A stretch of DNA of 44,188 nucleotides. Origin: Candidatus Nanoarchaeia archaeon (lineage in GTDB: Archaea; Thermoproteota; Bathyarchaeia; Bathyarchaeales; Bathycorpusculaceae). Of this stretch, positions 1,851 through 17,649 are shown one piece after another; the first letter of the stretch is position 1; every line of letters starts with the position of its first letter. A program made the position numbers and the translations under genes. The notes beneath the pieces are model-generated. The model was not told the origin of the DNA and searched no databases. It saw only the letters and a program-made list of their open reading frames with translations. Location of the stretch: contig DATJPJ010000080.1 in assembly GCA_035506455.1 (NCBI GenBank), positions 1 through 44,188 on the forward strand, read 5' to 3'.

Positions 1851-1852
1851 CG

Positions 1853-2515
1853 TTATTTGATTTCTAGTAGTTCGTAGGCGGTGCGCATTTCCTGCACTGT
1901 CATCTGTCCCGGGGCGGTTTCACTGCCGTGTTCGAGGGCGGCAAACGTGAAGAAGCTTCCGAACATTGGTGATAGGAGTCTGCTGACTCTGCCTAATGCG
2001 CCCATGGCGAAGCATACGGGTTTTTTTCTGATGGGGGCGTCTTTGATGAATTGGAGTAGGGTGAGGTTGTCTTCGACTGTTTGGGCGGTTGTTACGATTT
2101 TGCATACGTCTGCGCCGCTTGAGACTTCTCTTTCGAGGATTCGGTTAAGTTCTTGGAGTGTGGGTGTTTTGTAGATGTCGTGTGAGGAGACTATGCATTT
2201 TGCGCCTGAGGTTTTGGCTTGGTTGACGAAGTTTTGAAGTTTTGGGCTTTGCAGTTCTGTATCTACGTATTTGAATCCTGATTTTGCGGCGGATAGTAGC
2301 ATGTTTTGTCGGTCTGCTTCTGGTCGTTTTGATCTGTCGGCAGCGATTAAGGGGGTTTTGATGTGTGCTGTTAGGTCTTCTAATCTCACGTTTCTCTGGA
2401 GGAGGTCGAGTCTGACTTCAACAAAGTCGACGTGGAGTTCTTCCGCTTTTTTGATTAGCGCTTGGGCTTCAGTGGTGGTCTTTGGCTGAAGCGAGGCGCA
2501 AATTCGGATGGTCAT
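1853..2515 (-). CDS. aroD: 3-dehydroquinate dehydratase, type I
   Basis: 220 aa. VDFVEVRLDLL is followed by a K-containing TIM-barrel pattern typical of type I DHQase. The start overlaps the upstream gene's stop by 4 nt. Confidence 0.85.
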   Translation of the reverse strand: MTIRICASLQPKTTTEAQALIKKAEELHVDFVEVRLDLLQRNVRLEDLTAHIKTPLIAADRSKRPEADRQNMLLSAAKSGFKYVDTELQSPKLQNFVNQAKTSGAKCIVSSHDIYKTPTLQELNRILEREVSSGADVCKIVTTAQTVEDNLTLLQFIKDAPIRKKPVCFAMGALGRVSRLLSPMFGSFFTFAALEHGSETAPGQMTVQEMRTAYELLEIK

Positions 2516-3546
2516 CGTTCAATCACCTTTTCTTCTGGCACTGATATGCCGAAGTGTCTGCCGCCTTTCGCGGTTATGTGTACTAAGACTTCATCATCTT
2601 TTTTTAGGGCTGTTACTGGGATGGATTCTTTTGGCGTGACTAGGCGGATGGTTTCTGCGTTTTGTAGGATAGTTTTGATTTTTCTGCCTTCCACTTCTGC
2701 TTCGATTAGTAGTAGTGGTCGCATTTCGGTTTTTGTTCGTCCTACATTTGTTTTGTGGACTTTGCCTTCGCGGTTGACTATGAGAACTTCGTCGCCTGCT
2801 TTTAGTTCGGAGAGGTATTGGGTGTTTTGTTGAGCGCCTAGTGTGTACATTGATAGTGGGCCGGCGTTTATTCGGAATGGTCGTGAAGCCACGTAGGGAT
2901 TCTCGTGGACTTCGGCTTCGACTAGGAATAAGCCTGCGCTTTGTGAGCCTACGAGCATGCCTTCGCCGACTTCCATGAGGTCGCATGTGTCGACGCAAAC
3001 TCGTGCGCCTGTGCCGATTTGGCTTATTGTTAAGATCTTGGCTGGGATGAGTGGGATTTTTGGGATTTGTCGTTTTACGACTGCTGCCGTTTTGGCGAGT
3101 TCGTCTGCGTTGCCGGTCTTGAGTAGGACGCCGTCTGTGCCTAATTCTAGTGTTTCTAGGACGAGTTGGGCGTCTTGGGCGTTTGTGACTTCGGCTATGA
3201 GTTTGCTTTTGCCGCTGATTCGGGCGATGAGGTTTTCTAGTGGTATGACTCGCCAGTCTAGGCAGTTTATGACTATGTAGTCGATGCCGAGTTCGGCGGC
3301 TTGAACTGCTGCGTTTTCGTCTTCTTTGCCTTGTATGGTGATTTTTAGGGCGGCCGGTTTTGTTTGGCGTTTCAGTTCTTTGATTGTTTCTTCGTCGAGT
3401 TTGTCGAGTAATGTGATTTCTTGTTTGCTCGACGTTATCGTTATTCTTTTTCTTTCTATGGTTGCGTTGCTGAGTTCTGTGGCAAGTCTGCTAAGTTTGT
3501 CTTTTTCTGCAGAGTTCTTGTCGATTTGAACCCAGAGTTCCTTCAA
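2512..3546 (-). CDS. 3-dehydroquinate synthase II (archaeal AroB', MJ1249 family)
   Basis: 344 aa, with length and sequence character matching the archaeal DHQ synthase II family. It sits between the ADH synthase and aroD, and both junctions overlap by 4 nt. Confidence 0.8.
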   Translation of the reverse strand: MKELWVQIDKNSAEKDKLSRLATELSNATIERKRITITSSKQEITLLDKLDEETIKELKRQTKPAALKITIQGKEDENAAVQAAELGIDYIVINCLDWRVIPLENLIARISGKSKLIAEVTNAQDAQLVLETLELGTDGVLLKTGNADELAKTAAVVKRQIPKIPLIPAKILTISQIGTGARVCVDTCDLMEVGEGMLVGSQSAGLFLVEAEVHENPYVASRPFRINAGPLSMYTLGAQQNTQYLSELKAGDEVLIVNREGKVHKTNVGRTKTEMRPLLLIEAEVEGRKIKTILQNAETIRLVTPKESIPVTALKKDDEVLVHITAKGGRHFGISVPEEKVIER

Positions 3547-4334
3547 GGGGCGCCACCTAGAATTTTCAGCGCTGCTTCCACGGATGCGCCGTCGTGAACG
3601 ATGGCGGATAGCGCTTTGATCATCACGGTTTGGTTTTCGTGTTGAAACACGTTTCGTCCAATTGATAGACCTGCGCTACCTGCCTTGAGTGCTTCTGTGG
3701 TCATTTCTAGTGTGTCTTTGGCGGTTTTGGCTTTTGGTCCGCCGGCGATGACGATGGGAACGGGGCAGCATTCAACGACGTTTTTGAAGGTGTTGATGTC
3801 GCCTGTGTAGTTGGTTTTGACGATGTCTGCTCCGAGTTCTGCGCCTAGTCGGGCTGCGTGTGCGACCACGTCGGGTGCGTGTTCGTTTGTTATTTTTGGT
3901 CCTCGGGGGTACATCATGGCTAGTAGGGGCATGCCGTATACTTCGCATTCGTCGGCTACTTTTCCTAGCATCGTTAACATTTTGTCTTCGTCTTGGGCGC
4001 CTACGTTGATGTGTACTGAGACTCCGTCTGCTCCTAGTCTGACGGCTTCTTGGATGCTGCAGACTTGGACTTTGTTGTTGGGGTTTGGGCTTAGGTTTGA
4101 GGCGCCTGAAAGCATGACTATTAGCCCTGTGTTTGAGCAGTTAACGTGTTTTGCGATGCCTTTGTGTACGAGGATAGCGTCGGCTTTTCCTTTGATGAGG
4201 TTGTTGATGGTTTGCTGCATGTTTTCGATGCCCATGCATGGTCCGATGGTGACTCCGTGGTCCATGGGTACGATGACTGTTCGGTTGTCTGATTGGAATA
4301 TTCTTGTTAGTCGTCGTTTTTTGCCTTGGTTCAT
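3543..4334 (-). CDS. 2-amino-3,7-dideoxy-D-threo-hept-6-ulosonate (ADH) synthase, AroA' (DhnA-type class I aldolase fold)
   Basis: 263 aa. RTVIVPMDHGVTIGP and VKTNYTG/IAGGPK motifs match the DhnA/MJ0400 aldolase family. It lies directly upstream of AroB'. Confidence 0.8.
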   Translation of the reverse strand: MNQGKKRRLTRIFQSDNRTVIVPMDHGVTIGPCMGIENMQQTINNLIKGKADAILVHKGIAKHVNCSNTGLIVMLSGASNLSPNPNNKVQVCSIQEAVRLGADGVSVHINVGAQDEDKMLTMLGKVADECEVYGMPLLAMMYPRGPKITNEHAPDVVAHAARLGAELGADIVKTNYTGDINTFKNVVECCPVPIVIAGGPKAKTAKDTLEMTTEALKAGSAGLSIGRNVFQHENQTVMIKALSAIVHDGASVEAALKILGGAP

Positions 4335-4336
4335 GT

Positions 4337-5581
4337 TTATTTGCTCCTTAATGATTTGTCGACGAGGTCGAGCGCTTTTTCGCGTTGGTTCCAGTCCACA
4401 AAAAGCAGGATGCTTGAGGTGATGGTTAGGATACCGCTGATGTTTATGCCGTTGAGCCTCAAGACTTCACTTATTTTTCCGATGATACCTTGCGTTTCCT
4501 CTAACCCGACTCCACGGATTTTGAGGAATGCCAGGTCTTTCTTGACGGCCATGGCTTGGGTTTCGGGGTTTTGCAAAAGGGTTTCGTGGATTTCGCCGAA
4601 GAGGGTGTCGTTTGGTTTTTCGGCTGACACGTAGAGGATTGCTGAGTCTGTGTTCATGGATAATCCTAGAAGTTCGGTGTGTGCTTTGGTTTTGGTTACT
4701 AGGTCCGTTATGATTTTTGGGTTGTCCGAGACGCGGTGTCCCACTATTGTGATTTCGTTCACGGGGTTTGGGTGGGCTATTTCTGCGCCTAGTTCTGTGG
4801 CTAGTGCGCCTGTGATTACTGTGCCTTCTTTGGTTAGGTCTCCGTGTGCGCTGTTTATGACTCGTACGTTCACGGATTTGGGTTTGTATTTTAGGGCTTT
4901 GCTGTGGATGAATTTTGCTCCTGAATCTGCTAAGCCGACGAGGGTGCTGACGTCGATTTCTTTGAGTCTTTTTGGGTTAGGGATTAGTTTGGGGTCGGCG
5001 GACATGATGCCGTCGGCGTCGGTTACCAGTACGACTTCGTCTGCGTTTAGTGCTTCGGCGAGGATGAATGCGGTTGTGTCGCTTCCGCCTCGTCCTAATG
5101 TGGTGACTTTGCCTTCTGTGGTTCTGCCTATGAATCCGGCGATTACTGGTACAATGCCTTTCTCGACGACGGGAAGCACGGACTGTTGGATGCGGTTTTT
5201 GCATTCTTGTCGCATTGGGTTTGCGTTGGAGAAGCATGCGTCTGTGATGATGGGCCAGTCCTCGTCGATTGGGTCGAAGTATCGTGACTCTACGCCGCTG
5301 GTTCTCAAGGCGGCGGAGAATATGCGAACGCTGGTGCGTTCCCCCATTGATAGGATGTCGTCTAGCTCGTGTTTTTCGAGTTTTCCGTTTGAGCTGTTTT
5401 TGGCGGTGCTCATGAGGACATCTGTGGTTTTGCCCATGGCTGAAACGACGACTGCTATGTGCGTGCCTTTCCTTGCTTCGTTAGCTACTGCAGCTACCGC
5501 TCTTGAAAGCCTTTCGTGATCGGCAAGGCTAGAACCGCCGAATTTAACCACGATTTTTTTGGAAGATTTTTCATTTTTCAT
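4337..5581 (-). CDS. aspartate kinase
   Basis: 414 aa. It has KIVVKFGGSSLAD at the N-terminus, the GRGGSDTTA motif and a C-terminal ACT-like region. Its stop lies 2 nt from the AroA' start. Confidence 0.9.
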   Translation of the reverse strand: MKNEKSSKKIVVKFGGSSLADHERLSRAVAAVANEARKGTHIAVVVSAMGKTTDVLMSTAKNSSNGKLEKHELDDILSMGERTSVRIFSAALRTSGVESRYFDPIDEDWPIITDACFSNANPMRQECKNRIQQSVLPVVEKGIVPVIAGFIGRTTEGKVTTLGRGGSDTTAFILAEALNADEVVLVTDADGIMSADPKLIPNPKRLKEIDVSTLVGLADSGAKFIHSKALKYKPKSVNVRVINSAHGDLTKEGTVITGALATELGAEIAHPNPVNEITIVGHRVSDNPKIITDLVTKTKAHTELLGLSMNTDSAILYVSAEKPNDTLFGEIHETLLQNPETQAMAVKKDLAFLKIRGVGLEETQGIIGKISEVLRLNGINISGILTITSSILLFVDWNQREKALDLVDKSLRSK

Positions 5582-5593
5582 AAGCCATCGCCC

Positions 5594-5629
5594 GCCCAGA
5601 ACTTTTCTCAGAATCCTCGTGTTCTGGGC
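5594..5629 (-). promoter_or_regulatory. leader hairpin, 9-bp stem GCCCAGAAC/GTTCTGGGC with an 18-nt loop, 12 nt upstream of the aspartate kinase ATG
   Basis: Perfect inverted repeat read directly at 5594-5602 and 5621-5629. Its function is unknown. Confidence 0.3.
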
Positions 5630-5871
5630 TTAGTTAAACGAATAATAAAAGCTGTATTCGAAGCTATAGAATCGTGAAAATGAGCCGTTGTCCTGAAGCC
5701 ACGAGTCCATCATTATTAGCCTCGAACCTGTCAATTCATGACATCGTTTTGAAATAAAAGCATTTCGGAGTGTGTGTCTTTAAACTTCTTTGAGGGATGT
5801 GGAATGGTTGGGCGGTTTTTCTCTTTTTTGTATGGATAAGGCGTCGTCGTTTAAACTAAATCGAGAGCGTT

Positions 5872-6555
5872 TTATTGGTTGTTTTGCTTGTTTCTGCCTC
5901 TGATAACTAAGGTTACTGCGATGGCGGCTATGATGACGCCGGACACTGCGGTTATCAGTAATGCGGTTTGAACCCAGTTGTTGCTTTGGCTGTTTGGTGT
6001 TGTTCCGGTTGATGTTGTGGGTGTGTAAACTGCGTAGATGCTGAGGTCTTCGCTGGAGTTTGTGGTTGCTTGGGTAAATGTGGTTGGTGGTTCTGAAGCT
6101 GATGAGGTGTAAATTGCTTTGCCAGTTACGTTTGATGCATAATAGTATGTGCCTGCGCTTGAAAGTGAAATTCCTAGCCAGTATGTTGTGTTCGGCTTTC
6201 CTACGTATGAGACGTCGAAGCTTACCCATCTGCCCGAAGTTCCATCTAAGTTGACTTCGCTGCTCTGCGTTAGCAGTGCATCTGGGGCTCCGTTGAGGTC
6301 GGAGTAGATTACTGCTTTGGCTGTGGTTCCCCCTGTTGTTAAGTAGACGTTGATTTGTGTTATGTTTCCCAGATCGGCTGGGCCTGTGAAATTGGAGACA
6401 AAAACGCCGCCGAAGGTTGATTGGTTTGAGTCTCCGATGCTAACGAGTCCGAAACTTGACGAAGTTGCGTATGTAGTTGGAAGTGCTGTAGTCAGCATTA
6501 GGAATGTCACTGCGAAATAGAGTATCATTGTGGTTTTTGTTTTGTTTAGTTTCAT
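5872..6555 (-). CDS. exported protein with signal peptide, T/S/P stalk and C-terminal TM anchor
   Basis: The track ORF starts at GTG 6564. The ATG at 6555 has GGTGA 5 nt upstream. The N-terminal hydrophobic signal ends in TTYA. The C-terminus is TPNSQSNNW, a hydrophobic helix, then RGRNKQNNQ. Confidence 0.75.
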   Translation of the reverse strand: MKLNKTKTTMILYFAVTFLMLTTALPTTYATSSSFGLVSIGDSNQSTFGGVFVSNFTGPADLGNITQINVYLTTGGTTAKAVIYSDLNGAPDALLTQSSEVNLDGTSGRWVSFDVSYVGKPNTTYWLGISLSSAGTYYYASNVTGKAIYTSSASEPPTTFTQATTNSSEDLSIYAVYTPTTSTGTTPNSQSNNWVQTALLITAVSGVIIAAIAVTLVIRGRNKQNNQ

Positions 6556-6723
6556 GGGGTTCACCGATTTAGCTTTCTTACGCGTTTTTGTGCTTTAAGT
6601 CTTTACGAAGCTTATGTGAGTTTTGTTGCTTTGAATGGTTGGATGAAAATCTTGCGATTGAGTGCTGTGTTGGGCGCTGGTTTTTTGGTGTCTCGCTCTG
6701 AAACTGATCCGTTGTTGATGTGT

Positions 6724-7434
6724 TCATTGTTTTTCGGGGTCAACTTTGATTATTTGCTGAATCTTGCCCCAAGTTCCGACGCATCCTTTGTAGAGTATAA
6801 GCGCGCCTTCCACGCCAACAATCGTTTTCGCTGTTGCTATGCCTTTTTCTATGGTTGCGTTCACGTCTTCGCCCTTGACTGTGTTTCCGACCGCTGTTGC
6901 TGCTGCGTCTGCGAGTCCTGCTTCTTTGCAGAAGACTGTTGCCGCTTCTGCGTCGCCAAAACTTAGTGCGTGGCTGAAGCGGCCTGAACTTGTGGCTAAG
7001 CCGATTGGGAATTCGGTGAGTCGAAAGCCAAATCGTTTCGATAATGGTTCATCGCCTGCTGCCACAGCTACATCGACGGGTACGTTTGAGATGGCTGAGA
7101 TTTCGCCTCCATCTTCGACGATTGCCACTTCACAACTTGCTAAAATCATGTCTTTTACGGCTAGGTCTGCTAAAACTCCGGCTACTGCTGCCATTGGTCC
7201 GACGTTGGCTTTTTCTGCTGCCTTCGCCATAAGTTTGCATACAAGTGGCTTTTGTGGGGTGGGTGTTGGTTTGAGGCTCCAGCCGAATTTTGGGTTTTTG
7301 TTAAGGTAGTTTTCGAGTAATGTGTTGTTGTGTTGTATTGATTCTTTGGCGGCTTTGAGGCCTTCTTGTTTGTCGCAGATTATGGTGCATTGGGATTGTT
7401 TGTAGGTGAAGGCTTCTTTGAATAATGGTTTCAT
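6724..7434 (-). CDS. UPF0280 / COG2122 ApbE-like protein (MA1715 family, linked to sulfide-dependent Cys/Hcy synthesis)
   Basis: The true start is the ATG at 7434 (MKPLFKEAF...). The 70-aa R/H/K-rich track extension overlaps the upstream gene and is rejected. AAVAGVLADLAV and ATSSG motifs fit UPF0280. Confidence 0.75.
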   Translation of the reverse strand: MKPLFKEAFTYKQSQCTIICDKQEGLKAAKESIQHNNTLLENYLNKNPKFGWSLKPTPTPQKPLVCKLMAKAAEKANVGPMAAVAGVLADLAVKDMILASCEVAIVEDGGEISAISNVPVDVAVAAGDEPLSKRFGFRLTEFPIGLATSSGRFSHALSFGDAEAATVFCKEAGLADAAATAVGNTVKGEDVNATIEKGIATAKTIVGVEGALILYKGCVGTWGKIQQIIKVDPEKQ

Positions 7435-7436
7435 TG

Positions 7437-7877
7437 TTAACTGCTCAGGGGACTTGGTTGGTGTGTGTGGCTGTGTGTTTCGTTTTGTTTTACTGATTTT
7501 ATTGCTCGGGCGGGGCATGCGTCTACGCATGCGCTGCATGTGCTTCCGACGCATTTTTCTTTGTTGAAATTGATGGAGAGGTCTTGGGTGGTTGTGATTG
7601 CTTCTACTGGGCAGAGTGTTATGCATGAGCCGCAGTTTATGCATTTTTCTGTGTCGACTTCGATTAGTTTTGGTAGGCTTACGGTGACGCCTTTTTTGCG
7701 GAATGCTTTTACGACTTCGTCTAGTTTTTCTGCTGGGACTTCGGCTAGGACTTCTCCGCCTTTGTTGTTGACTTGGGCGGTTATGATGTTGATGGGTACT
7801 TTTAGGTCGAGGATTATTTGTGAGACGAGGGGTTGCTCGACGGTTTTTTCTGTGAACCGTAGGAGTATTCTTACCAT
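7437..7877 (-). CDS. NIL-domain / 2x[4Fe-4S] ferredoxin fusion (MA1822 family)
   Basis: The internal ATG at 7877 gives MVRILLRFTEK..., a NIL domain. This is followed by CINCGSCITLCP and CVGSTCSACVDACP cluster motifs. It overlaps the upstream COG1900 gene's stop by 7 nt. Confidence 0.85.
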   Translation of the reverse strand: MVRILLRFTEKTVEQPLVSQIILDLKVPINIITAQVNNKGGEVLAEVPAEKLDEVVKAFRKKGVTVSLPKLIEVDTEKCINCGSCITLCPVEAITTTQDLSINFNKEKCVGSTCSACVDACPARAIKSVKQNETHSHTHQPSPLSS

Positions 7878-9529
7878 GCTTTTTTCCTTCCGAGCAGTTT
7901 GGAAACGTCTTCTGAGGTGACTATGCCTAGTACTTTCTTTTTTGCGTCTATTACTGGGAGTGCGGATATGTTGTGGGTTGCCATGCGTTTTGCTGCTGTT
8001 TCTAGGGGTTCGTCGGGTTTGGTTGTTATGACGTGTTTTGTCATGATGTCGGTTAGGGATTGTTTGCCCTGTGCCATTGCGCGTGTTACGTCCCATGAGG
8101 TTACGATGCCTGTGAGTGTGCCTGTGTCGTCGATTACGATTATGTGGTTTACTGATTTGGTGACTATGCGTTCGGCTATGGCTCGGACTTCTTCGTTTTC
8201 TTTGCATGTGACTGCTTTGTGCATGACGTTTGCGACGAATGGTGTGTCTTCTGTTTGTTTCATGGGTTTGAAAACGGTGTCTAGGGGTAGTCGTTCTACT
8301 GGGGCTGTTAGGAAGAATTCGCCTTGGTCAATCCACTGTTTTAAGGTGGCGGCGACGTTGCGGGCGTTCTTGAGGCTTGAAAGTGAGCTTACCTTGATTT
8401 TTTTGTCGCCTACTGTTATCGTGCCCGATTTGAGTTGTTTGTAGTTGACTTTGGCGAGTTTTGGGCGGTCTCTTCGTGGAACGCCGTAGTCGACTACGTT
8501 TGTGAATATTTCTTCGTCTCGGATGGCGGTTTTTTTTGCTATGCCTTCGTTTAGGATTGGGATTGGGATGCCTAGTCCGATGTATAGTGTTGTGCCGTAT
8601 CTGGTGAAGGTTGCGCCGCGGAGGAATTTTGTGTCCATTTTTTTGGCGTTGCCTCTGACCATTATTGTTCCGTTTTGGGTTTTTGCTTCGTGTTGGGTGC
8701 CTTCGCCTATGATGTAGCCTTGGGTTCCGCCTAGGAAGATTTTGGTTCCCATTCCGATGGTTTCGTAGTCGGGGTCGTTCATGAGGGGGTTTAGTTCGCC
8801 TGCGCCTGAGTATGTGGCGTTGCGCATTCCTGGGAGGAGTTTGCCCATGTATGTGTAGATTGTTTCGTCGCGGGTGTTGACCGCGCAATTGTATCGTTGG
8901 TAGCAGTTTCGGAAGTTTAACAGGTAAAATTGGTTTAAGTCTTCTTTTGTTAGGGTTGTTCTTAGTTGTGTTCGGGGGTAGCAGTCGGTGCCGTAAGCTG
9001 AAGCTTTTAGTTCAACTTCTTTGCCTGCTACAAGGTCCTCTATGAGGTGTCCTCCGCCGTACTCATAAGGTTGGGTTTCTGACATGGCGGTTGCGCCTAT
9101 GTAAAGGTCGACGGCGGCGCCTGGGTGGCAGATTGGTACGTTGTTCATGAATGCTTGGTCAATTTTCATGGGTGGGTCAGAGTGGCCTACGTTTATGATG
9201 GCGCCTGAGCTGCACATCGCTCCAAAAGTGCCTGTTGTGACCACGTCGACTTCTTTAAAAGCTACTTCGACGCCGCTGCTTTCTACTAGCCGTTTCATTT
9301 CTTCGGCTGTTAAGACTTGGGCGTCGCCTTTGCGGATTTTCTCGTTAATTTCTTCGATGGTTCGGGTTTTTTTCTGAGGGGTTAACGCTTTTTGTCCGAC
9401 CAGTTGCAACTGAAGGACGTTTTCGCGTATTAATAGGTTTTGAACTTTGGTAATGGGATTGGGTGAGTTGAGTGGGGTTTGGACCCCGGTCATTTGTCGC
9501 GACATTAATTTTTTCAATCGTCGCGACAA
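7871..9529 (-). CDS. homocysteine biosynthesis protein, COG1900 domain + tandem CBS (MA1821 family)
   Basis: The conserved N-terminus KTRTIEEINEKIRKGDAQVLTAEEMKRL begins about 45 codons into the ORF. A tandem CBS pair sits at the C-terminus. The 9529 start is a TTG. TTG 9409 and ATG 9493 are alternatives, and repeat copy A (9475-9540) overlaps the extension. The true start is therefore probably near 9409. Confidence 0.85.
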   Translation of the reverse strand: MSRRLKKLMSRQMTGVQTPLNSPNPITKVQNLLIRENVLQLQLVGQKALTPQKKTRTIEEINEKIRKGDAQVLTAEEMKRLVESSGVEVAFKEVDVVTTGTFGAMCSSGAIINVGHSDPPMKIDQAFMNNVPICHPGAAVDLYIGATAMSETQPYEYGGGHLIEDLVAGKEVELKASAYGTDCYPRTQLRTTLTKEDLNQFYLLNFRNCYQRYNCAVNTRDETIYTYMGKLLPGMRNATYSGAGELNPLMNDPDYETIGMGTKIFLGGTQGYIIGEGTQHEAKTQNGTIMVRGNAKKMDTKFLRGATFTRYGTTLYIGLGIPIPILNEGIAKKTAIRDEEIFTNVVDYGVPRRDRPKLAKVNYKQLKSGTITVGDKKIKVSSLSSLKNARNVAATLKQWIDQGEFFLTAPVERLPLDTVFKPMKQTEDTPFVANVMHKAVTCKENEEVRAIAERIVTKSVNHIIVIDDTGTLTGIVTSWDVTRAMAQGKQSLTDIMTKHVITTKPDEPLETAAKRMATHNISALPVIDAKKKVLGIVTSEDVSKLLGRKKAW

Positions 9530-9540
9530 TCGAGAAAAAC
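9475..9540. repeat. direct repeat copy A (about 66 nt) with internal 10-bp dyad TTGTCGCGAC/GTCGCGACAA
   Basis: Aligned by eye to 9968-10030. Shared blocks are GGTYTGGACCC(C)GGTCATTTGTC, ATTTTT, GACAATSG and GAAAAC. Confidence 0.7.
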
Positions 9541-9864
9541 CTTGTTTCTGGGATTAGTGCGGGTTGCTTTTCTTGGAAGCAGTTTATTAGCAATTGTCCT
9601 GCGATTGTCGCATTGTGCTAGATGTCGGCCTGAATTCTGTTGCAAAAGAGTGAAGAGGTTGTGGAAGACTTGTGCGTTTTTGCTCTTAACCAGGAAGCCG
9701 CTGAGCGGGGGTGGCTTTGGGGGAGGGTTGAGGGCGCCGCAGTTACCAGGAGGAGAGGGAGGGGGTAGTATGTTCGCAGCTTGGGTTTTTTTTAATGTTG
9801 AACATTGCGAAATCTTGTTTTTTGGGGTTGAAGCTGTTTGCTTTTTGGTAATGCAGCTTTTTGG

Positions 9865-9934
9865 CAAGTGTTCAAGCAATGTTCAATCCAATGTTCGCGA
9901 TGCAGAAAACCAATGTTCAGCCAATGTTCAACAT
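9865..9934. repeat. five direct (C)CAATGTTC(A) iterons at 11-12 bp phasing
   Basis: Copies start at 9865 (CAAGTGTTCA), 9876, 9888, 9910 and 9921. The last one merges into the palindrome ATGTTCAACAT. A related palindrome AATGTTGAACATT lies at 9794-9806. Confidence 0.7.
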
Positions 9935-9967
9935 GGGTGAGCCAGTCCTGGGTTAACGGGCCGGGAC

Positions 9968-10030
9968 GGGTCTGGACCCGGTCATTTGTCCCGTCAATGG
10001 ATTTTTGCATTGTGGGACAATGGTGAAAAC
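9968..10030. repeat. direct repeat copy B (about 63 nt) with internal dyad TTGTCCC/GGGACAA
   Basis: See copy A. The arms are at 9986-9992 and 10014-10020. Confidence 0.7.
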
Positions 10031-10203
10031 AGGTGTTTGGGGTCTGTAGTGGGTTGGTTTTTGTTAAAGCAGTCTGCCCATGATTGTCCACCATTGACCC
10101 AACTGGTCAATCCGTTCAGGGAGGTTTGACTATTTTTTTTGGGGGATGTGCAGAGTCTTGCTGAAAGAATTAGCTGATAGAAAGAAAGGGAGTTTTGGCT
10201 TGG

Positions 10204-10707
10204 TTAAGCCGTCTTCATGAACTTTGATTTGGGTGAGCCGCAGACGGGGCAGACGTCCGGAGCGGAGCCTTCCACAGTGTTTCCACATGTCTGGCAGACG
10301 TAGTAGTCGACCTTTACAATGTCTTTCTTGTTTTTCATTGCGTCTATAGCTTTCTGGTATAGTCCAGCGTGCACTTTCTCGACTTTGTTTGCGACGTCAA
10401 AGCTCCATGCAGCTTGTTTGTTGCCTTCTTTCTTAGCTACGTCGAGGAATTCAGGGTACATTTTCATAAACTCGAACGATTCGCCGCCAAACGCGGTGTT
10501 CAGGTTTTCCATTGTAGATTTGATTTCGCCTAAGGTTCTTAGATGGTTTAAGGCGTGGACGGTTTCGGCTTCTGCTGCTGCTCGAAAGAGCTTGGCAGCT
10601 TGTGTGAAGCCTTCTTCGTCGGCTTTCATTGCGAAAGCTAAGTATCGTCTGTTTGCTTGAGATTCTCCTGCGAATGCAGCTTTTAGGTTTTCATCGGTCT
10701 TGGTCAT
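10204..10707 (-). CDS. rbr: rubrerythrin
   Basis: 167 aa. It has a ferritin-like diiron domain (ENLKAAFAGESQANRRY, EAETVHA) and a C-terminal rubredoxin-like CQTC...CPVC. AGGAGA lies 9 nt upstream of the ATG. Confidence 0.9.
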   Translation of the reverse strand: MTKTDENLKAAFAGESQANRRYLAFAMKADEEGFTQAAKLFRAAAEAETVHALNHLRTLGEIKSTMENLNTAFGGESFEFMKMYPEFLDVAKKEGNKQAAWSFDVANKVEKVHAGLYQKAIDAMKNKKDIVKVDYYVCQTCGNTVEGSAPDVCPVCGSPKSKFMKTA

Positions 10708-10845
10708 ATAAAATTCTCCTGAAAAAGATTAACTTCGAAGTAAGTTATAAGTTATGCTTAAAATTTTGGGGGCTCACATTGAGGATACAGCAAAGGTATA
10801 TTAGGTTTAGTTTGCTTGTGAAAACATTGGTTTTTGGTGAGTAAA

Positions 10846-11487
10846 ATGGAGCATCTTACGATTAGTAAAAGCAAAACTGAAACTATAACTTCTTTTAGTC
10901 TTCCCAAGTTGCCTTATGACTACAAGGCTCTTGCGCCCTTCTTGTCTGAGGAACAGCTCAAGCTACATCACGATAAGCATCATTTGGGATACGTAAACGG
11001 TGCGAATGCTATCTTTGAAAAGTTGGACAAAGCCCGGAAAGAAAACATGGAAATCGACGCCAAAGCGACCTTCAAAGAGCTTTCGTTCCACATTGGCGGC
11101 CATATGTTGCATTCTGCGTTTTGGGATTGCATGGCACCTCCAGGAAAAGGTGGGGGTAAACCGAGTGGAGCCATTGCTGATGCAATTAACAAGGAGTTCG
11201 GAAGCTTTGATCGTTTCAAGATGGAGTTCTCTAAAACTGCTAACAGCGTTGAAGGCTCAGGTTGGGCAGTATTAGCAATGCAGGAATGTATTTCTAGGCC
11301 GCTGATTATGCAGGTTGAGAAACATAATGTAAACGTCTTTCCGGGTTTTCGCATTCTAATGGATTTGGACGTCTGGGAACACGCATATTATGTTGATTAC
11401 AAGAATGACCGCGCCAAGTTCGTTGAAGGGTTCTGGACTGTGGTCAACTGGGATTACGTCAATAAAGTTGCAACTATGATAAAGTAA
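10846..11487 (+). CDS. sod: Fe/Mn superoxide dismutase
   Basis: LPKLPYDYKALAPFLSEEQLKLHHDKHH and DVWEHAYY motifs are present. The track start at 10834 is a TTG. The ATG at 10846 has GGTGA 6 nt upstream. Confidence 0.9.
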   Translation: MEHLTISKSKTETITSFSLPKLPYDYKALAPFLSEEQLKLHHDKHHLGYVNGANAIFEKLDKARKENMEIDAKATFKELSFHIGGHMLHSAFWDCMAPPGKGGGKPSGAIADAINKEFGSFDRFKMEFSKTANSVEGSGWAVLAMQECISRPLIMQVEKHNVNVFPGFRILMDLDVWEHAYYVDYKNDRAKFVEGFWTVVNWDYVNKVATMIK

Positions 11488-11500
11488 GCCACGACAACAA

Positions 11501-11518
11501 TCTTTCTTTCTTTTTTTT
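11501..11518 (+). terminator. oligo-T tract (TCTTTCTTTCTTTTTTTT) downstream of sod
   Basis: A T8 run at 11511-11518 begins 24 nt after the sod stop. Archaeal termination typically uses oligo-T. Confidence 0.45.
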
Positions 11519-11916
11519 AAGCTAAATTCTTTGTTTCTGCGAAAAATATTTTTGCATGGATTTCTCCGACTTTGTAATTTTCATTTTAGCCGACAATGAA
11601 AAACGCCAAATTTTGCACGTGTGATAATTCAAACCTTCTTTTGTCGAGAGGCTCCTTACGTCAGTCTAAATTATTTTTAGAGAGCTGGGCAAGATTCCTG
11701 TCACATTTAAGTTTAGCTGGATGATCATCTGCGGAATTAGTCACTAATCAAATCTGCCTTACAAATATCTTCCACCAGTTTGGTGGTTCACTGATTCTTG
11801 CGACATTGAGGCTGGAGGCTGGGGCATTGGCAACTGGAGCGACGGGCAACTGGGTTAGATTGGGTTCATAGACGGATTCGTAACGATTTTGCAAGGGCAG
11901 GCTCCATCCATTTGGT

Positions 11917-13311
11917 TCACAAAGTAACGCGTTTGCGACTTTTTCTAATCAGATACAGTGAAACTGCAATTACAGTGGTTATTGCTGCTACGGTAATGGA
12001 AACATCTATTATTCCAAAGCCAGAGGCCGGTTTTTGACTTTGTGTTGGAGTCACTCCCGTCGCGAGTTGCAGGCTAAGCGATGAAACACCCGTGGTTGCC
12101 AGCTGCAGATTTTGCGCATCTATTTCGGTTACTCTATAAATCCCCCAACCCGCTGGAAAAGTCCATGTCCGAACTGCACTGCCTGTAGCGTTAACTTCAA
12201 CGATAACAGCACCTGTCTGATTAGTCTGGTCTTGTTGACCAAATTCGTGGTCTTGGTCTCCAAAAACTGCAAGTTTATCTCCATTGGGCAAAATATCTGC
12301 ACTTCCCCAATACTGAGTCCAATCTGATGTGGGTGATTCCCAACTCCAGATTTCACGAGCGGTCATGTTCTGCATGTCCAAAGAAATCTCCAGTATCCTG
12401 CTGTGTGCATCTAAGGGGTTGGTTTCATTGTGAAAATCATTGTCAAACATTATGAAGATCCCCGGGGCAACTTGGGCAGTGTCGTGGCTGTGGTACCATA
12501 AGCTGGAAACAACGTCGCCCTGTGAATTTACAAGTGTGAAGTTGCCAAACTGTCCGCATGCCCAAATTATGTTTCCTGATGTTTGGTTGATGGCGTAAAA
12601 TGTGTTTGTGTGGCGTACGTTCAGGTAGATGAGACTGTCGTTGTAGTCCCATTGAAGGGCGTTTGAGTGGGTGAAATCTACCACGGTTTGCCCATTTACT
12701 AATGAAGTGTCATTAAAGGGGTCTGCCTCCGTGAGAGGTATGTTGCCGTAGGTGTCCCAGCTCCAAAGTATACTTCCTGTCGCGTTCAGCTCGTCGACTG
12801 TGTCAAAGAGGTAGTTGGTTCCGTTGACGTTTCTCACGTAGTTCCGGAGTGCGAGGAAAGTGTTGTTAATAGGATTATAACAGAGGTCATGATGACCGTA
12901 AACGTTTGGGAAATCGGTTGTTTCGTTCGAAGTGAAGTTCCAGAAAAATGACTCGCTTGCCGCGCTATTGCCTTGGACCATAAGAGTGTCGGGTGCGATG
13001 TATTTGACGGAATTTGAGTAGCTCGCGGAGGAGCCGTTGGCTTCTATGAAATTAAGAGCTTGTGTGTTATCGGTTTGCATGACTACTAGGTAGCTTGCAA
13101 TCACCTGTTGCAAGTTGCTGGAGTTGTATTGGGACAAGCCAAAGGCTAGTTCTCCGTTCCAAGCGTTTCCAGTGGTATCAATTGTGCAGGGTACCACGAA
13201 CCCTGTGGAAGTCGCGGAATAGCTGATGGGAACAGTGGCTAGAATTATGAGACAGGCTATTAGCAACCCCGCTTTTAGAAAAATTGGCTTTCTGTTTCGT
13301 GATTCAAACAT
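11917..13311 (-). CDS. exported, C-terminally anchored beta-propeller-like protein, possibly arylsulfotransferase (ASST)-like
   Basis: 464 aa with an N-terminal signal/TM. His-containing motifs GHHDLCYNP, DFTHSNALQWD and WYHSHD recall ASST-family proteins, from memory and not searched. It has more than 12 N-x-S/T sequons. The C-terminus is a TM helix followed by RKSRKRVTL. Confidence 0.5.
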   Translation of the reverse strand: MFESRNRKPIFLKAGLLIACLIILATVPISYSATSTGFVVPCTIDTTGNAWNGELAFGLSQYNSSNLQQVIASYLVVMQTDNTQALNFIEANGSSASYSNSVKYIAPDTLMVQGNSAASESFFWNFTSNETTDFPNVYGHHDLCYNPINNTFLALRNYVRNVNGTNYLFDTVDELNATGSILWSWDTYGNIPLTEADPFNDTSLVNGQTVVDFTHSNALQWDYNDSLIYLNVRHTNTFYAINQTSGNIIWACGQFGNFTLVNSQGDVVSSLWYHSHDTAQVAPGIFIMFDNDFHNETNPLDAHSRILEISLDMQNMTAREIWSWESPTSDWTQYWGSADILPNGDKLAVFGDQDHEFGQQDQTNQTGAVIVEVNATGSAVRTWTFPAGWGIYRVTEIDAQNLQLATTGVSSLSLQLATGVTPTQSQKPASGFGIIDVSITVAAITTVIAVSLYLIRKSRKRVTL

Positions 13312-13878
13312 GTTCTGTAGCCTTTAGTAAACGATGATTTTCCTCGCGTTTCAGCACGCGCAGAATATTTAGTTGTTTACCAGAATTGTACCAGAATTTC
13401 GTTCGTATTAGTTGAATGGTCGCTTGAAGTATCCATTTTTTACGATTTTGTAATAGAACTCAGGAAAATTTTTGAGAACGACGTCAATTCTAAAGACAAA
13501 ACTAACGTGCAAGGAATGAGTAGCCTTGGTTTTTCCGTAATTACTTGTTTCCCCCTTCACGTTTCCAGGTAACTACATCGGAGTTTCCTGAAGGATACAT
13601 GGGGGCGTTTTGAGAACCGTTTGAGAATAAGTAAATCGATCCATTGAAAGACCTCTAACTGGTGTTTCCAAAACGTTAGAGAAGTGAATCAAGAAGAAAA
13701 TTCCCCAATGGGTAAGACCAAAGAAGATTGGCTAACTCCCCAAGTATATAAAATTTAAGTTTGAGGCTTGATACTCTTAAGAACCACTTATTTATCAAAA
13801 TTCGAACAGGTTTTTTGTGTCAAAAAAGTTTTACAAGCAATCTTTTAGGTGAGTTGAACCAGTAGTTACTTGATTGCT

Positions 13879-15450
13879 ATGAGCAAGAAAACATTCATAG
13901 CAGCAATAGTCATACTGTTCCTATTTTCAGTGGTAAGCCTTCCGCATTTTAGCGGGGCACAAGAACCAGTTATTAACATCAATGGTGATGGCACTGTCAC
14001 TCCTTCGACTGCTCCAATAAAGCAAACAGCAATCGGGTATGCTTTAACGGGAGATGTAAACGAGGACATAATTGTGGGCATCAGCAACATAGTTTTTGAC
14101 GGAAATGGCTACCACAGTATCAGGGGGGTTTTCTTGATCGGCGTGTCAAACGTCACGATCCAGAACTGTTCAATTTCAACGGACGGCGCAATTAGCTTGG
14201 ATGGGGCTTCGAACATTACCATTGTTAATAACACATTAACTGGTGCTGACTTTCCATGGTACGAGACGGGCACAATCTCAATTCACAACAGTTATCTAGT
14301 AAAAATTGAAGGAAACGTAATGGCGAGCGGTTGCAGCGGCATAATAATGATGGAAAGTCATGACAACTTGATTACTGAAAACAACATAACAGGCATGTCA
14401 ACTATTTGGCCACATGAAAGCGCAGCGATTATACTCTACAACTCTACAAACAACACCTTCTACCACAACAATTTCTTCAACAATGCTCAAGGAGTAACGG
14501 TTAACGGAATCAGTTCAGGCAACACCTACGACAACGGCTATCCCAACGGGGGAAACTACTGGAGCGACAACAGCGGAAAACAGTGGGGCGACCGCTATCC
14601 CCTTTCAAAGCCATTCACCACTACTTCATTATCTCCAACATTAACGCCCACACCATCTCCAAGTCCTTCTCCCAGTGCATCATCTTCTCCAAACATATCA
14701 CCCACACTTTCACCACCCGCGAACGCTGCAACCTCTTCCCCGATCGCCTTTCCGTCAAACACTCAATTCACGATACCAGCCCAAAACGCCACCATCATTT
14801 TTGCGCAAAATGGCACCTACGAAACCGCAAACCTTGACAATGGCACATGGATTTTCACTAACCTCTATCTAAACTCACCAAACGGCGATCTACTCGTAGA
14901 CAGCCCAACCATTGGCAATCTAAGAATAAACGCACAAGACAGCAACGTAACGATAGATTGCTTCGACCGACTCATATCCCCCTACCCAAACCACTACCAA
15001 GGCAACGCAACCTGGCAAACGCAAGGCTGGCTAAACTATACCGTCAACGGAACAGGAACGCAGACGATAAAAATCCAATTCAACTTAGTCGGTTCCACGA
15101 TTCCCTACCTAAACGGCGTCGGAACAGTAGATTGGCCCATATTCGTTTCGTTTTATGCAGGTGGCAACACGACAGAAACTGGCCTAAGCGGCGACAATTG
15201 GCCTCGACCGTATGGAATAGGGCTTACTGTGAACGGGGAAAGCTCGTACGTTGGTATCGGCTACCAGTGGGTAAACGCTCCCATTAATCCAGACCAACAA
15301 TCTCAGACGCTACCCCCTCTCCTAGATTATACCCCTACTCCCTCACCTTCCCCTCAGCAGAACGTTATACCTGCTTTAGTCATAGCAGCCGTTGTGGTTG
15401 CAGCGGTTGTGGTGGTATTGCTGATTTACTTCAGGAAGAGAAGAGGATAG
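13879..15450 (+). CDS. exported right-handed beta-helix (NosD/CASH-like) protein with P/T/S linkers and C-terminal TM anchor
   Basis: The ATG at 13879 is preferred because the track start 13870 is a TTG. Repeated motifs NVTIQNCSI, NITIVNNTL, IEGNVM, ITENNITG and FYHNNFFNN are typical of parallel beta-helix repeats. The linker is TPTPSPSPSPS and the tail is QQN-TM-RKRRG. Confidence 0.7.
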   Translation: MSKKTFIAAIVILFLFSVVSLPHFSGAQEPVININGDGTVTPSTAPIKQTAIGYALTGDVNEDIIVGISNIVFDGNGYHSIRGVFLIGVSNVTIQNCSISTDGAISLDGASNITIVNNTLTGADFPWYETGTISIHNSYLVKIEGNVMASGCSGIIMMESHDNLITENNITGMSTIWPHESAAIILYNSTNNTFYHNNFFNNAQGVTVNGISSGNTYDNGYPNGGNYWSDNSGKQWGDRYPLSKPFTTTSLSPTLTPTPSPSPSPSASSSPNISPTLSPPANAATSSPIAFPSNTQFTIPAQNATIIFAQNGTYETANLDNGTWIFTNLYLNSPNGDLLVDSPTIGNLRINAQDSNVTIDCFDRLISPYPNHYQGNATWQTQGWLNYTVNGTGTQTIKIQFNLVGSTIPYLNGVGTVDWPIFVSFYAGGNTTETGLSGDNWPRPYGIGLTVNGESSYVGIGYQWVNAPINPDQQSQTLPPLLDYTPTPSPSPQQNVIPALVIAAVVVAAVVVVLLIYFRKRRG

Positions 15451-15458
15451 GTTTGAGT

Positions 15459-16334
15459 ATGAAAACGTCCATGGCAGTCATCGTAATCTTCATTTCATTG
15501 TTTTTTGCGATTGGTATGCATTTTCAGGTGGCAAAAGGAAATCCAACGGGTTTTGGTCCACCAAATCCCACTCAACCTGTTGAAGACCCCCCAACAATTG
15601 ATATTCAGTTTCCAGAAAACATAACCTATTATGGGAGTATTGTGCCGCTAAACGTTACTGTTACTCAGCCTATTTCGTGGTACGTGGAACAGTACCCCAG
15701 ACAACTAGCACCGCTTAACACTATCAAATCGGTAAACTGTGTCATTGACGGGCAACAATTTGTCTTATGGAATGGGACACTCGTTAATCAAGGCCTTAAT
15801 CAAGCCATTAGCTTTGACCTTCCCAGTGCGTGTCAGTTTGCGGCTTTAATAGAAGCTGGCTCAGGAGAGCATACATTGGAGGTAGATGTAGGCACGCAAG
15901 TCTTGTACTATCCGAGGGCAGGTTTCTTTCCAAGTTCCTTAACCATGAATGCTTCTCAAAATGTCACTTTCACAGTGGAAACAAGTCTAGCTGTTTCTGA
16001 AACAACGGTATCTTCCATAGAGCCACCAACTCCAACTTCGAATTACTTACCTTTAGTAATGGTGACACCCACGCCAAATCCAGGACTTACTCTATCTCCA
16101 TCAGCTACTCATTCTCCAAACCCATCTCCAACTTCAACTGTAAACCTAATCATAACTCCTTCACCTTCTCCAACACAGCAACCAATACCAGAACCCAGTG
16201 CAACACCAAATAATGCCCAAGAAAACTTTACGTCAACGCTATTCATAACTGCCTTATTGGTTGCTTTAGTCATTGCATTGCTGGTCTACTTGAGGAAAAA
16301 GGGGAAGATAATGTGGATTAGAATGCATTCGTAG
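15459..16334 (+). CDS. exported protein with P/T/S stalk and C-terminal TM anchor
   Basis: The ATG at 15459 is preferred because the track start 15453 is a TTG. It has a signal peptide, the stalk PTPNPGLTLSPSATHSPNPSPTS...TPSPSPTQQP, then QEN-TM-RKKGK. It begins 9 nt after the preceding gene. Confidence 0.7.
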   Translation: MKTSMAVIVIFISLFFAIGMHFQVAKGNPTGFGPPNPTQPVEDPPTIDIQFPENITYYGSIVPLNVTVTQPISWYVEQYPRQLAPLNTIKSVNCVIDGQQFVLWNGTLVNQGLNQAISFDLPSACQFAALIEAGSGEHTLEVDVGTQVLYYPRAGFFPSSLTMNASQNVTFTVETSLAVSETTVSSIEPPTPTSNYLPLVMVTPTPNPGLTLSPSATHSPNPSPTSTVNLIITPSPSPTQQPIPEPSATPNNAQENFTSTLFITALLVALVIALLVYLRKKGKIMWIRMHS

Positions 16335-16376
16335 TTGCAAAAATAGCATTATTAGTTTTGAGGAAAGAGAAGCCGC

Positions 16377-16694
16377 CTAAGGCGGCGGAGTAATTTTTAT
16401 GGCCCCCGTTGGGCATTGTGTTTCGCATGCAAGACATTGGATGCAGTCGGGTTCACGTGCCGGGTCAGAACGTTTGTCTCCGCTGGGTGTTTGACCCCAG
16501 TCATAGAGAGAAACTGGGCAGACGCTGATGCATACGCCGTCTCCGACGCAGATGTCCCAGTCGACGGCTGAGTAGGTTCCGTGGATGCCCAGTTTGCCGG
16601 GTTCGTTTGCGCCCCAGACTTTGTGGCCGTTGTGTTCGCTTGTAACTTTTCGTTTGGTTTGAAAATCAGGGTCAATTGGCAAAAAATTCACCAT
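16377..16694 (-). CDS. zinc-containing dicluster ferredoxin (Sulfolobus Zfx-like)
   Basis: The N-terminal His-rich extension SEHNGHKVWG...LGIHGT is followed by DICVGDGVCISVCP and CIQCLACETQCP. This resembles the Sulfolobus zinc ferredoxin as I recall it. Confidence 0.85.
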   Translation of the reverse strand: MVNFLPIDPDFQTKRKVTSEHNGHKVWGANEPGKLGIHGTYSAVDWDICVGDGVCISVCPVSLYDWGQTPSGDKRSDPAREPDCIQCLACETQCPTGAIKITPPP

Positions 16695-16784
16695 TTTCTA
16701 GTCGGCGACCCGGGAATATTAGCTTTTTGCTGTTTGCTTGCCAAAAAAGTTTTGAGCACATATGTGGTGTATAGTTTGGTTTGT

Positions 16785-17567: not shown

Positions 17568-17649
17568 CTTCTGATGCTTTCTTTTCTTTCTTCACGTAAT
17601 ACTCTTTCTTTTTCTTTTCTTCTTCTGCCTTCTTTTTAGCTGCAGCCAT
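17554..17649 (-). CDS. candidate 31-aa lysine-rich micro-protein (MAAAKKKAEEEKKKKEYYVKKEKKASEVKKK)
   Basis: Hand-translated. GGTGAT lies 4 nt upstream of the ATG at 17649. It overlaps the priS 3' end by 14 nt. It is below the ORF-track size cut-off and is low-complexity, so it could be chance. Confidence 0.25.
   Translation of the reverse strand: MAAAKKKAEEEKKKKEYYVKKEKKASEVKKK

Follow-up and report, generated by a model that had tools for sequence, protein, structure and literature searches.

What occupies a long stretch of archaeal DNA in which no gene can be found? The interval in question (the gap) covers positions 9410 to 10203, or 794 nucleotides (nt), of a 44,188-nt stretch of contig DATJPJ010000080.1 that we call the window, and it separates two blocks of genes. 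An earlier reading of the letters alone (the original prediction) described the gap as gene free and dense in motifs and proposed three candidates: a replication origin or partition-type protein-binding array, one or two structured noncoding RNAs, or a decayed nonautonomous mobile element. We find that the gap holds one copy of a modular, noncoding repeat that is present at many loci, is absent from orthologous sites in relatives, and bears no known RNA or origin signature. On balance, we lean toward the view that this repeat is a lineage-specific, nonautonomous, dispersed mosaic element of Bathyarchaeia whose modules would act as DNA-level protein-binding cassettes. The best reading of its placement is insertion between the intact promoter of an HcyBio gene and the 3′ end of a rubrerythrin gene. 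Bathyarchaeia are abundant and almost uncultured, and to our knowledge their noncoding DNA and small mobile elements are almost uncharacterized.

A modular repeat and its copies

Two direct repeats of about 65 nt had been noted in the gap. Direct repeats are indeed there, but they number three and are ~140 to 190 nt long. A hidden Markov model (HMM) built from the two obvious repeats picked up the third across a block previously listed as phased iterons; the iterons exist, but the block is a third, more diverged repeat copy. After one HMM iteration, all three modules scored with E values of 1e-22 to 1e-35 (nhmmer). The core of the long repeat occurs in the window only at 9482 and 9974, with 0.06 matches expected from shuffled sequences. 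The element is ~0.68 kb long (~9465 to 10145) and comprises 3.1 tandem paralogous modules (Table 1).

An alignment of 19 to 22 module copies from several loci revealed a single common layout, which runs 5′ to 3′ from a G-rich leader through a short dyad, box1, a T5 to T8 tract, box2, and a ~65-nt core to box3. At their start, modules A and B have the dyad GACC-CC-GGTC, and module C has TTACC(C)n-loop-(G)nGGTAG. Box1 is an imperfect palindrome, and the box2 palindromes are ATTGTCGCGACAAT in A, AATGTTSAACATT in C, and CATTGTGGGACAATG in B. The core (GNGAAA...TTGTTT.GGGG...) is conserved and carries a small hairpin, TTGCTT/AAGCAG. Box3 consists of 2 to 5 direct copies of one half-site word, 10 to 12 nt apart, and ends with an inverted copy in C and B. 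The word is specific to the module (ATTGTC, AATGTTC, or ATTGAC) and common to boxes 1 to 3 of each module. The five AATGTTCA iterons of module C are spaced by 11, 12, 22, and 11 nt, and the exact 9-mer CAATGTTCA occurs five times on both strands of the 44-kb window, four of them within 9799 to 9930.

All of the smaller motifs in the original prediction were recovered. Words of the ATTGTC type occur at 9593, 9604, and 9612 and similar ones at 9985 and 10083 (within a few nucleotides of the sites claimed), and both the dyad ATTGACC/GGTCAAT at 10093 to 10111 and the T8 runs at 9786 to 9793 and 10133 to 10140 are present. A G-quadruplex motif at 9709 to 9736 is there as well but is not conserved in other copies and is probably incidental. 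The right junctions of the window and of two other copies (L174 and L173; L numbers denote the contigs compared) show a leader-like GGGGTTTG or GAGTTGGAGCTTTGG followed by unrelated flanks.

Table 1. Coordinates of the repeat element and its borders in the window
Feature	Position	Strand	Remarks
HcyBio/COG1900+CBS promoter	9410-9442	-	B recognition element (BRE)/TATA CAAAACCTATTAATA; TATA ~9427-9435; TTG start 9409, essentially leaderless; outside the repeat element
Left junction with weakly conserved leader (CTTTGG...GGGAT-like)	9443-9464	+	Weak likeness among A-module left flanks; homology to relatives already ended
Module A	9465-9625	+	nhmmer E = 2e-35; 82-94% identity to 7 other A-type copies
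Module A dyad GGACCCCGGTC	9481-9491	+	
Module A box1 TTTGTCGCGACATT	9493-9506	+	
Module A T6	9509-9514	+	
Module A box2 ATCGTCGCGACAAT	9517-9530	+	Perfect palindrome ATTGTCGCGACAAT in 4 of 8 A-type copies
Module A core hairpin GTTGCTT/AAGCAGT	9563-9583	+	
Module A box3 half-sites ATTGTCC, ATTGTCG, ATTGTGC	9593, 9604, 9612	+	Direct
Tail and linker	9626-9739	+	Least conserved part, 65-87% identity between copies
Linker T5	9677-9681	+	
Linker hairpin AAGCCGC/GTGGCTT	9695-9701/9711-9717	+	Followed by T3
Linker G-runs	9709-9736	+	
Module C	9740-9945	+	nhmmer E = 4e-22; 81-94% identity among 7 copies
Module C leader hairpin TTACC/GGTAG	9743-9747/9764-9768	+	Hypervariable purine-rich loop; stem and loop vary, hairpin kept in all copies
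Module C box1 TATGTTCGCAG	9769-9779	+	
Module C T8	9786-9793	+	
Module C box2 palindrome AATGTTGAACATT	9794-9806	+	Core next
Module C box3, five AATGTTCA-type half-sites	9867, 9878, 9890, 9912, 9923	+	Last one forms palindrome ATGTTCAACAT
Module B	9946-10111	+	nhmmer E = 2e-34; 86-92% identity to B modules of L174, L187, L173; aligns to module A
Module B dyad GGACCCGGTC	9974-9983	+	
Module B box1 TTTGTCCCGTCAAT	9985-9998	+	
Module B T5	10002-10006	+	
Module B box2 CATTGTGGGACAATG	10008-10022	+	Core next
Module B box3 ATTGTCC, ATTGACC, inverted GGTCAAT	10083, 10093, 10105-10111	+	
Right end, cut-off start of a fourth module	10112-10145	+	Leader GGGAGGTTTGAC at 10119-10130, then T8 at 10133-10140
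Rubrerythrin 3′ flank	10146-10203	-	T-rich on minus strand; unique, common only to same-species contigs L001-L003 and L188; outside the repeat

Copies of the element were sought with an exact 22-base pattern in JGI metagenome contigs, and the genome collection was scanned around HcyBio genes only. The pattern scan yielded 10 loci, and 8 of the 10 carry the element; L171 and L177 were chance matches. The whole array, A-linker-C-B, is kept as a unit with 81 to 88% identity in L174, L176, L179, L173, L178, and L172, and in L187, which was found later. L175 has a lone module A plus a degenerate module, L170 has module B, ~250 nt, and then module A, and the copies in L176 and L179 are truncated. 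In total, the array is present in at least eight unrelated chromosomal contexts. The flanks are mutually unrelated and hold ordinary chromosomal (housekeeping) genes, encoding a RadB-like ATPase, the uL22-uS3 ribosomal operon with HypE, a thiolase, an ABC ATPase, a DUF3795 protein, a CdvC/Vps4-like AAA ATPase, a PAS histidine kinase, and a PNPOx-family protein beside an unannotated 355-amino-acid open reading frame (ORF). The uS3 protein of L170 is 80 to 90% identical to Bathyarchaeota proteins.

Protein queries with spurious ORFs of the repeat added few copies. They matched two NCBI entries from one metagenome-assembled genome (MAG), HTY74681.1 (VMD05_03860) and HTY75756.1 (VMD05_09355), which are identical to ORFs of L174-type and L179-type copies and lie on different contigs; at least two copies of the element thus lie in one genome bin. 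The VMD05_ MAG is labeled Candidatus Nanoarchaeia, yet its repeat ORFs match L174 and L179 and the family otherwise occurs only on Bathyarchaeia-like contigs, so its taxonomic label or binning may be wrong. Four pattern scans of the IMG/VR viral collection gave only matches that an nhmmer check put down to chance, BLASTN searches of PLSDB and INPHARED returned nothing, and we found no description of such an element in Bathyarchaeia in the literature. The repeat family is previously undescribed.

Whether the gap is syntenic or mobile was a question raised by the original prediction. In BLASTN comparisons, the gap is not syntenic: homology with the closest Bathyarchaeia relatives ends at 9442, and none of the 80 Bathyarchaeia HcyBio loci (species-level relatives) matches the gap beyond the promoter. 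The upstream gaps at those loci are mostly ~45 to 250 nt long, with a few up to ~1.4 kb. Synteny with the HcyBio relatives persists only to the left of the gap, which marks a synteny breakpoint.

A second orthologous site, the uL22 locus, gave the same picture. In the ribosomal genes, L190 and L191 match L170 at 84% identity and L189 is farther removed; all three lack the modules present in L170. There, ~800 nt with modules B and A stand in place of 314 nt of other sequence in L190; homology returns sharply at L170 position 3751, and part of the ancestral spacer is kept between the two modules. The "empty" upstream region (L190 5019 to 5331, equal to L191 2152 to 2464) has direct words of its own that are CAATAGTYATGAC-like, in three copies, and a 21-nt match to box1 and the T-tract of module A (TTGACCGGACATTAGTTTTTT). 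By its sequence, it may be a very diverged other module type or a remnant. L190 also carries a tyrosine integrase gene at 1642 to 2811.

Modules are 82 to 94% identical between copies, versus 65 to 87% for the linker. L178 and L187 represent one locus in two strains, with flanks 94.8% and arrays 85.7% identical, and the A module and linker of L187 are nearer to L174 than to L178. Such conflicts between segment similarity and locus orthology point to exchange between copies. Over 11 kb, contig L001 differs from the window only by 17 mismatches and 2 gaps, all of which fall in 9689 to 9763 (L001 10946 to 11029). This divergent 75-nt segment comprises linker and purine loop and lies at the end of the L001 contig; gene conversion along this tract, hypervariability of the loop, or chimerism of the contig end could each account for the differences. 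Overall, the mosaic pattern fits tighter constraint on modules than on linkers, combined with either copy-to-copy exchange or a chimeric contig end. Several contigs terminate within or beside the element. Repeat-induced assembly breaks explain the contig ends inside the array poorly, because copies are only ~85% identical and k was 141, and heterogeneity among strains in the hypervariable linker would account for them equally well.

Coding and RNA potential of the gap

The claim that the gap is free of genes held up. No Pfam family matched its long ORFs, substitutions among copies at codon positions 1, 2, and 3 showed no periodicity (45/54/54, 60/44/53, and 38/40/46), and indels of 1, 2, 4, and 7 nt, which break the frame, are common among copies. 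ORFs on the minus strand are open solely through the T-poor strand. Module C contains, at 9770 to 9940 on the plus strand, a Shine-Dalgarno-like GGAGG, an ATG, and a 56-codon ORF (MFAAWVFFNVEHCEILFF...) that is intact in five of eight copies and stops after 4 to 8 codons in the other three (L176, L178, and L173). In one MAG, NCBI lists it as a hypothetical protein (HTY75756.1), but judged by these truncations, it is probably not a gene. The only database "homologues" of gap ORFs are ORFs called inside other repeat copies, and gene callers thus place spurious "hypothetical proteins" in the repeat, HTY74681.1 and HTY75756.1 among them. A homolog-supported gene with codon-periodic conservation, the observation that the original prediction had named as contrary to it, was looked for and not found. 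Since Pfam matches are missing, substitutions are even across codon positions, indels are common, and the small ORF is truncated, we regard the gap as noncoding and rejected a coding gene as its explanation.

Known RNA families were likewise not found. At the Rfam 15 gathering threshold, the whole window yielded only a tRNA-Phe at 43.4 kb; at an E value of ≤10 within 9300 to 10300, the best hits (E values of 2.9 and 9.5) were chance-level matches to mir-544 and sR46. A scan of the gap for tRNA and transfer-messenger RNA found nothing, no CRISPR-like structure was seen in the gap by inspection, and no ribozyme family scored in Rfam. RNAalifold predicted 0 consensus pairs over 19 module copies. 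On seven A units, it gave a G·U-rich fold with a covariation term of +0.26 and 1 compensatory pair in 69. An explicit test of the two best helices gave 80% pairing and two pairs with double changes. With 7 to 19 related sequences, the power of these structure comparisons is low. A long-range stem between box2 and box3, whose arms differ from one module type to the next, looked at first like covariation between paralogues, but the pairing is not maintained over 19 copies and is explained by the shared half-site words. An uncompensated C·C mismatch breaks box2-box3 complementarity in most A copies, which argues that the words behave as half-sites and not as RNA partners.

Proposed protein-binding cassettes and rival explanations

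The layout of the modules suggests recognition of DNA by protein. The perfect palindromes ATTGTCGCGACAAT and AATGTTSAACATT have no spacer and are incapable of forming RNA hairpins, and multiple half-sites of the same word recur at a phase of 10 to 12 nt. The protein-binding array of the original prediction thus agrees with the architecture, palindromes with half-sites at an ~11-nt phase, and binding itself is put forward on these features. In the proposed mechanism, a sequence-specific dimeric DNA-binding protein would recognize the palindromic boxes that flank the T-tract, and further subunits would bind cooperatively to the 2 to 5 same-word half-sites, which lie ~70 bp downstream at intervals of about one helical turn. 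Three related but distinct words are carried by the three module types. The element, itself encoding nothing, has spread to many chromosomal intergenic sites, and its copies exchange segments; recombination, gene conversion, or an enzyme that acts in trans from another locus would bring this about. For the host, the many plus-strand T-runs might serve in insulation or termination; 11 of 16 flanking genes sit on the strand whose transcript lacks these runs, which fits such a role.

Several observations weigh against this reading. No binding protein, transposase, integrase, or Rep gene lies next to any examined copy, and we therefore infer both binding and mobility. There are no terminal inverted repeats (TIRs), inverting the left end (GGTTTGGACCCCGG...) does not give the right end (...ATTGACCCAACTGGGTCAAT, GGTTTGAC), and no consistent target-site duplication (TSD) was seen at seven left and five right junctions, the left boundary being fuzzy. 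All modules are direct in orientation, which is unusual for cut-and-paste elements, and the copies are 78 to 94% identical, with no sign of recent transposition. The assignment of two copies to one genome rests on MAG binning. Both strands fold better than shuffled sequences (z = -4.8 and -3.7), as is expected from the palindromes alone. Finally, the ~65-nt core with its small hairpin is conserved across module types, the T-A/T·G/C-G series in that hairpin is consistent with a stem of plus-strand RNA or single-stranded DNA (ssDNA), and a model of pure binding sites leaves the conserved core unexplained.

These last points are the strength of an RNA explanation, under which the array would be a cluster of three paralogous plus-strand small-RNA genes: the T-tract would serve as a TATA box with an operator palindrome on either side, the core and perhaps the words would be transcribed, and the copies would form a multigene small-RNA family. 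The core (GAAA...TTGTTT.GGGG...TTGCTTTT...AAGCAG) persists across the three module types while the boxes change, G·U pairs in its hairpin are workable on the plus strand only, and the linker hairpin AAGCCRC/GTGGCTT changes only by plus-strand wobble. T8 followed by AAT is also akin to the TTTAAA-type TATA boxes of promoters in this genome, and the z score of -4.8 points the same way. We nevertheless consider such genes unlikely. Beyond the Rfam, consensus-fold, and covariation results given above, the helix-test values are attainable from sequence relatedness alone, B modules have an uncompensated G·G mismatch in the hairpin, and several phased half-sites would be needless for an RNA. Within 700 nt, moreover, the plus strand has nine or more T-runs of at least 5 nt, which should stop archaeal RNA polymerase almost at once, including right after the putative start in module C. 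The structured noncoding RNAs of the original prediction were thus not borne out.

A mobile element had been the third candidate, and of the three, it comes closest: the repeat is multicopy, occurs in unrelated contexts, includes truncated, permuted, and decayed copies, and is absent from orthologous sites, and mobility is what these features suggest. One specific form of this idea is a nonautonomous element mobilized as ssDNA by a trans-acting HUH/Y1 enzyme of the IS200/IS605-PATE (palindrome-associated transposable element), REP/RAYT (repetitive extragenic palindrome/tyrosine transposase associated with REPs), or rolling-circle Rep type, with module-start hairpins and box palindromes, all on one strand, as recognition hairpins and phased half-sites as the binding locus, much as in rolling-circle double-strand origins. 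The uniform orientation of modules and hairpins, with no TIR or TSD seen, is the signature expected of HUH-type elements. The C-module leader stem is kept while its length and loop vary (TTACC(C)n...(G)nGGTAG), and the single modules in L170 seem to have been inserted separately. Origins of the pMV158 type have a nic-plus-bind organization, which a hairpin or palindrome, a ~70-bp spacer, and three 11-nt direct repeats may be said to resemble. We still regard mobilization of this kind as quite improbable, given that no HUH transposase, Rep, or TnpA gene lies near any copy or in the window, no conserved flanking target tetranucleotide was identified, and the viral, plasmid, and phage collections gave no match. 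The dyad at the start of modules A and B has a spacer of only 1 to 2 nt, cannot form a hairpin, and has a 5′ arm that is not conserved. REP elements, unlike ours, are 20 to 40 bp long and take alternating orientations in bacterial interspersed mosaic elements (BIMEs) (PMC2817692).

The grammar of the modules also raises the candidate that headed the original prediction, a chromosomal replication origin or centromere-like partition site with iterons and palindromes as the target of an initiator or of a ParR/SegB-like protein. Classically, iteron origins and parC combine an operator palindrome with direct copies of its half-site in helical phase, as seen here, and the long intergenic region that houses the array coincides with a break in synteny. 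The distribution of copies makes this very unlikely: there are at least eight, dispersed, with two in one MAG, some of them truncated, and their presence varies among close relatives. Reading of the gap and the copies turned up no origin recognition box (ORB) or mini-ORB motif, and the only A/T tracts are T-runs of 5 to 8 nt, hence no unwinding element. No orc1/cdc6, whiP, rep, parA/segA, or parB/segB gene is adjacent to any examined copy (Pfam, window and neighbors of eight other copies), and the window as a whole contains no Orc1/Cdc6, Rep, or Par gene. A GC-skew analysis, which the original prediction had suggested for this purpose, showed no inflection; the cumulative skew climbs evenly through the gap, and its sole sign change, near 14 kb, tracks gene orientation. 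The ORB boxes with an AT-rich unwinding element, adjacent initiator gene, low and positionally conserved copy number, and skew inflection that mark oriC are thus all missing here, as is the adjacent cognate Rep or ParR/ParM (SegB/SegA) gene of an iteron origin or parC in the contexts examined. Such gaps should not be taken for replication origins. We also rejected the gap as the border of an integrated element; the window has no integrase or transposase and no second copy of the array, and its sole tRNA gene is at 43.4 kb.

Comparison with known systems places the element, by its sequence features, closest to BIME/REP and BOX mosaics and to MITEs (miniature inverted-repeat transposable elements) and PATEs, with an internal grammar that resembles iteron origins and parC; it appears to fail the defining tests of each of these families. 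It does behave as dispersed repeats in general do, having multiple copies, unrelated contexts, and no coding capacity. BIMEs and the Streptococcus pneumoniae BOX elements (boxA-boxBn-boxC) are, like it, noncoding, extragenic, multicopy, and modular or mosaic (BIME description in PMC2817692); palindromic units are joined with other conserved motifs, copies differ in how many modules they have and in what order, and the copies are lineage specific, lie between housekeeping genes, and are candidate protein-binding sites. The present element differs in being archaeal, in having modules of 150 to 200 nt instead of 20 to 60 nt that are direct and not alternating, in giving each module type its own half-site word at ~11-nt phase, and in a copy number that seems to be about ten and not hundreds. 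REP/BIME are defined by GTAG- or CGTC-tagged palindromes and a RAYT gene in the genome (PMC2817692, PMC3733652), and the element has no such tagged hairpin, nor was a RAYT gene seen. MITEs and other nonautonomous insertion sequence (IS) derivatives, including the IS200/IS605 PATEs, share with it a size below 1 kb, noncoding and dispersed intergenic copies, polymorphism between relatives, and decay; PATEs, which have neither TIRs nor TSDs, further share hairpins on one strand. Dyads and hairpins on the same strand, no TIRs, and no consistent TSD seen are compatible with a PATE; no conserved target and no TnpA were found in the sequences available. Compared with MITEs and IS derivatives, the element lacks TIRs and an identified partner transposase, shows no consistent target duplication, is built of tandem paralogous modules, and has copies that are 78 to 94% identical instead of near identical. 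Iteron origins and type II parC (pMV158 dso and R1 parC) offer a possible analogy in an inverted half-site with several direct copies at about one helical turn near a T/A-rich tract. Against that analogy, the element has no adjacent cognate Rep or ParR gene, no unwinding element, many chromosomal copies, and three different word sets per element.

If the protein-binding reading is correct, a bolder extension can be drawn, which we hold to be speculative and rather improbable as a whole: the three module types would be cognate platforms for three coevolving paralogous DNA-binding proteins, or for a single protein whose mode differs from module to module, and the element would be a new class of archaeal dispersed cis element, either a host-domesticated organizer or insulator at operon boundaries or a set of origin-like satellite cassettes that need an unlinked HUH/Rep-type enzyme. 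The palindrome and phased-array words of each module would then evolve in concert. Whatever its mechanism, the family offers a concrete archaeal case of a dispersed modular repeat that can be aligned, with the unusual property that an operator-like palindrome and a phased half-site array have module-specific words in common. Were proteins to bind the cassettes, the family would supply ready probes for cognate DNA-binding proteins. Because copies lie at synteny breaks and apparently exchange segments, they mark sites of genome rearrangement.

Neighboring genes and other features of the window

The gene to the left of the gap (7871 to 9409, minus strand) encodes a protein with HcyBio and CBS domains (Pfam) that is 75 to 86% identical to proteins of 80 Bathyarchaeia MAGs; the window comes from a Bathyarchaeia genome. 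The original prediction placed its true start at about 9409, in agreement with L008, which carries an ATG at the exact position of the window's TTG 9409. That the gap is noncoding and repeat dense is true of all but its leftmost part; 9410 to 9442 is the conserved promoter of this gene, whose motif CAAAAsCTATTAATA is unchanged across seven genomes. Farther left is a densely packed amino acid biosynthesis cluster (shikimate pathway genes, aspartate kinase, and NIL-ferredoxin; Pfam).

To the right, genes for rubrerythrin (10204 to 10707, minus strand) and superoxide dismutase open a redox and oxidative-stress cluster (Pfam), and the minus-strand segment at 10146 to 10203 is the probable termination region of rubrerythrin. 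The cluster (10204 to 27345) contains rubrerythrin, an Fe/Mn superoxide dismutase, a Pyr_redox_2 oxidoreductase, glutaredoxin, an FeThRed_B/rubredoxin-like protein, peroxiredoxin, a nitroreductase, and an HhH-GPD glycosylase, and in 0 of 80 related genomes does it adjoin HcyBio. Within it, at 16581 to 17567 on the plus strand, lies a gene whose 328-amino-acid product has a weak DNA_primase_S (PrimPol-like) domain (~40 residues, E = 7e-8). Domains of this type are frequent in archaeal mobile elements.

A stretch of low GC content (0.36 to 0.39) with few genes spans 30818 to 33450. It includes, at 31220 to 31450 on the minus strand, a gene for a 76-amino-acid lysine-rich protein with 11-residue repeats of VAVDAKKVGSK (33-nt tandem repeats, 4 to 5 copies) that resembles late embryogenesis abundant (LEA) proteins, as well as a 40-nt inverted repeat at 31869 to 31908 and 32198 to 32237. 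Over positions 1 to 10000, where genes are on the minus strand, the plus strand has a GC skew of ~+0.2 and an AT skew of ~-0.4, and coding strands are C and A rich. The repeat element shares this strand bias, its plus strand being G and T rich in every context.

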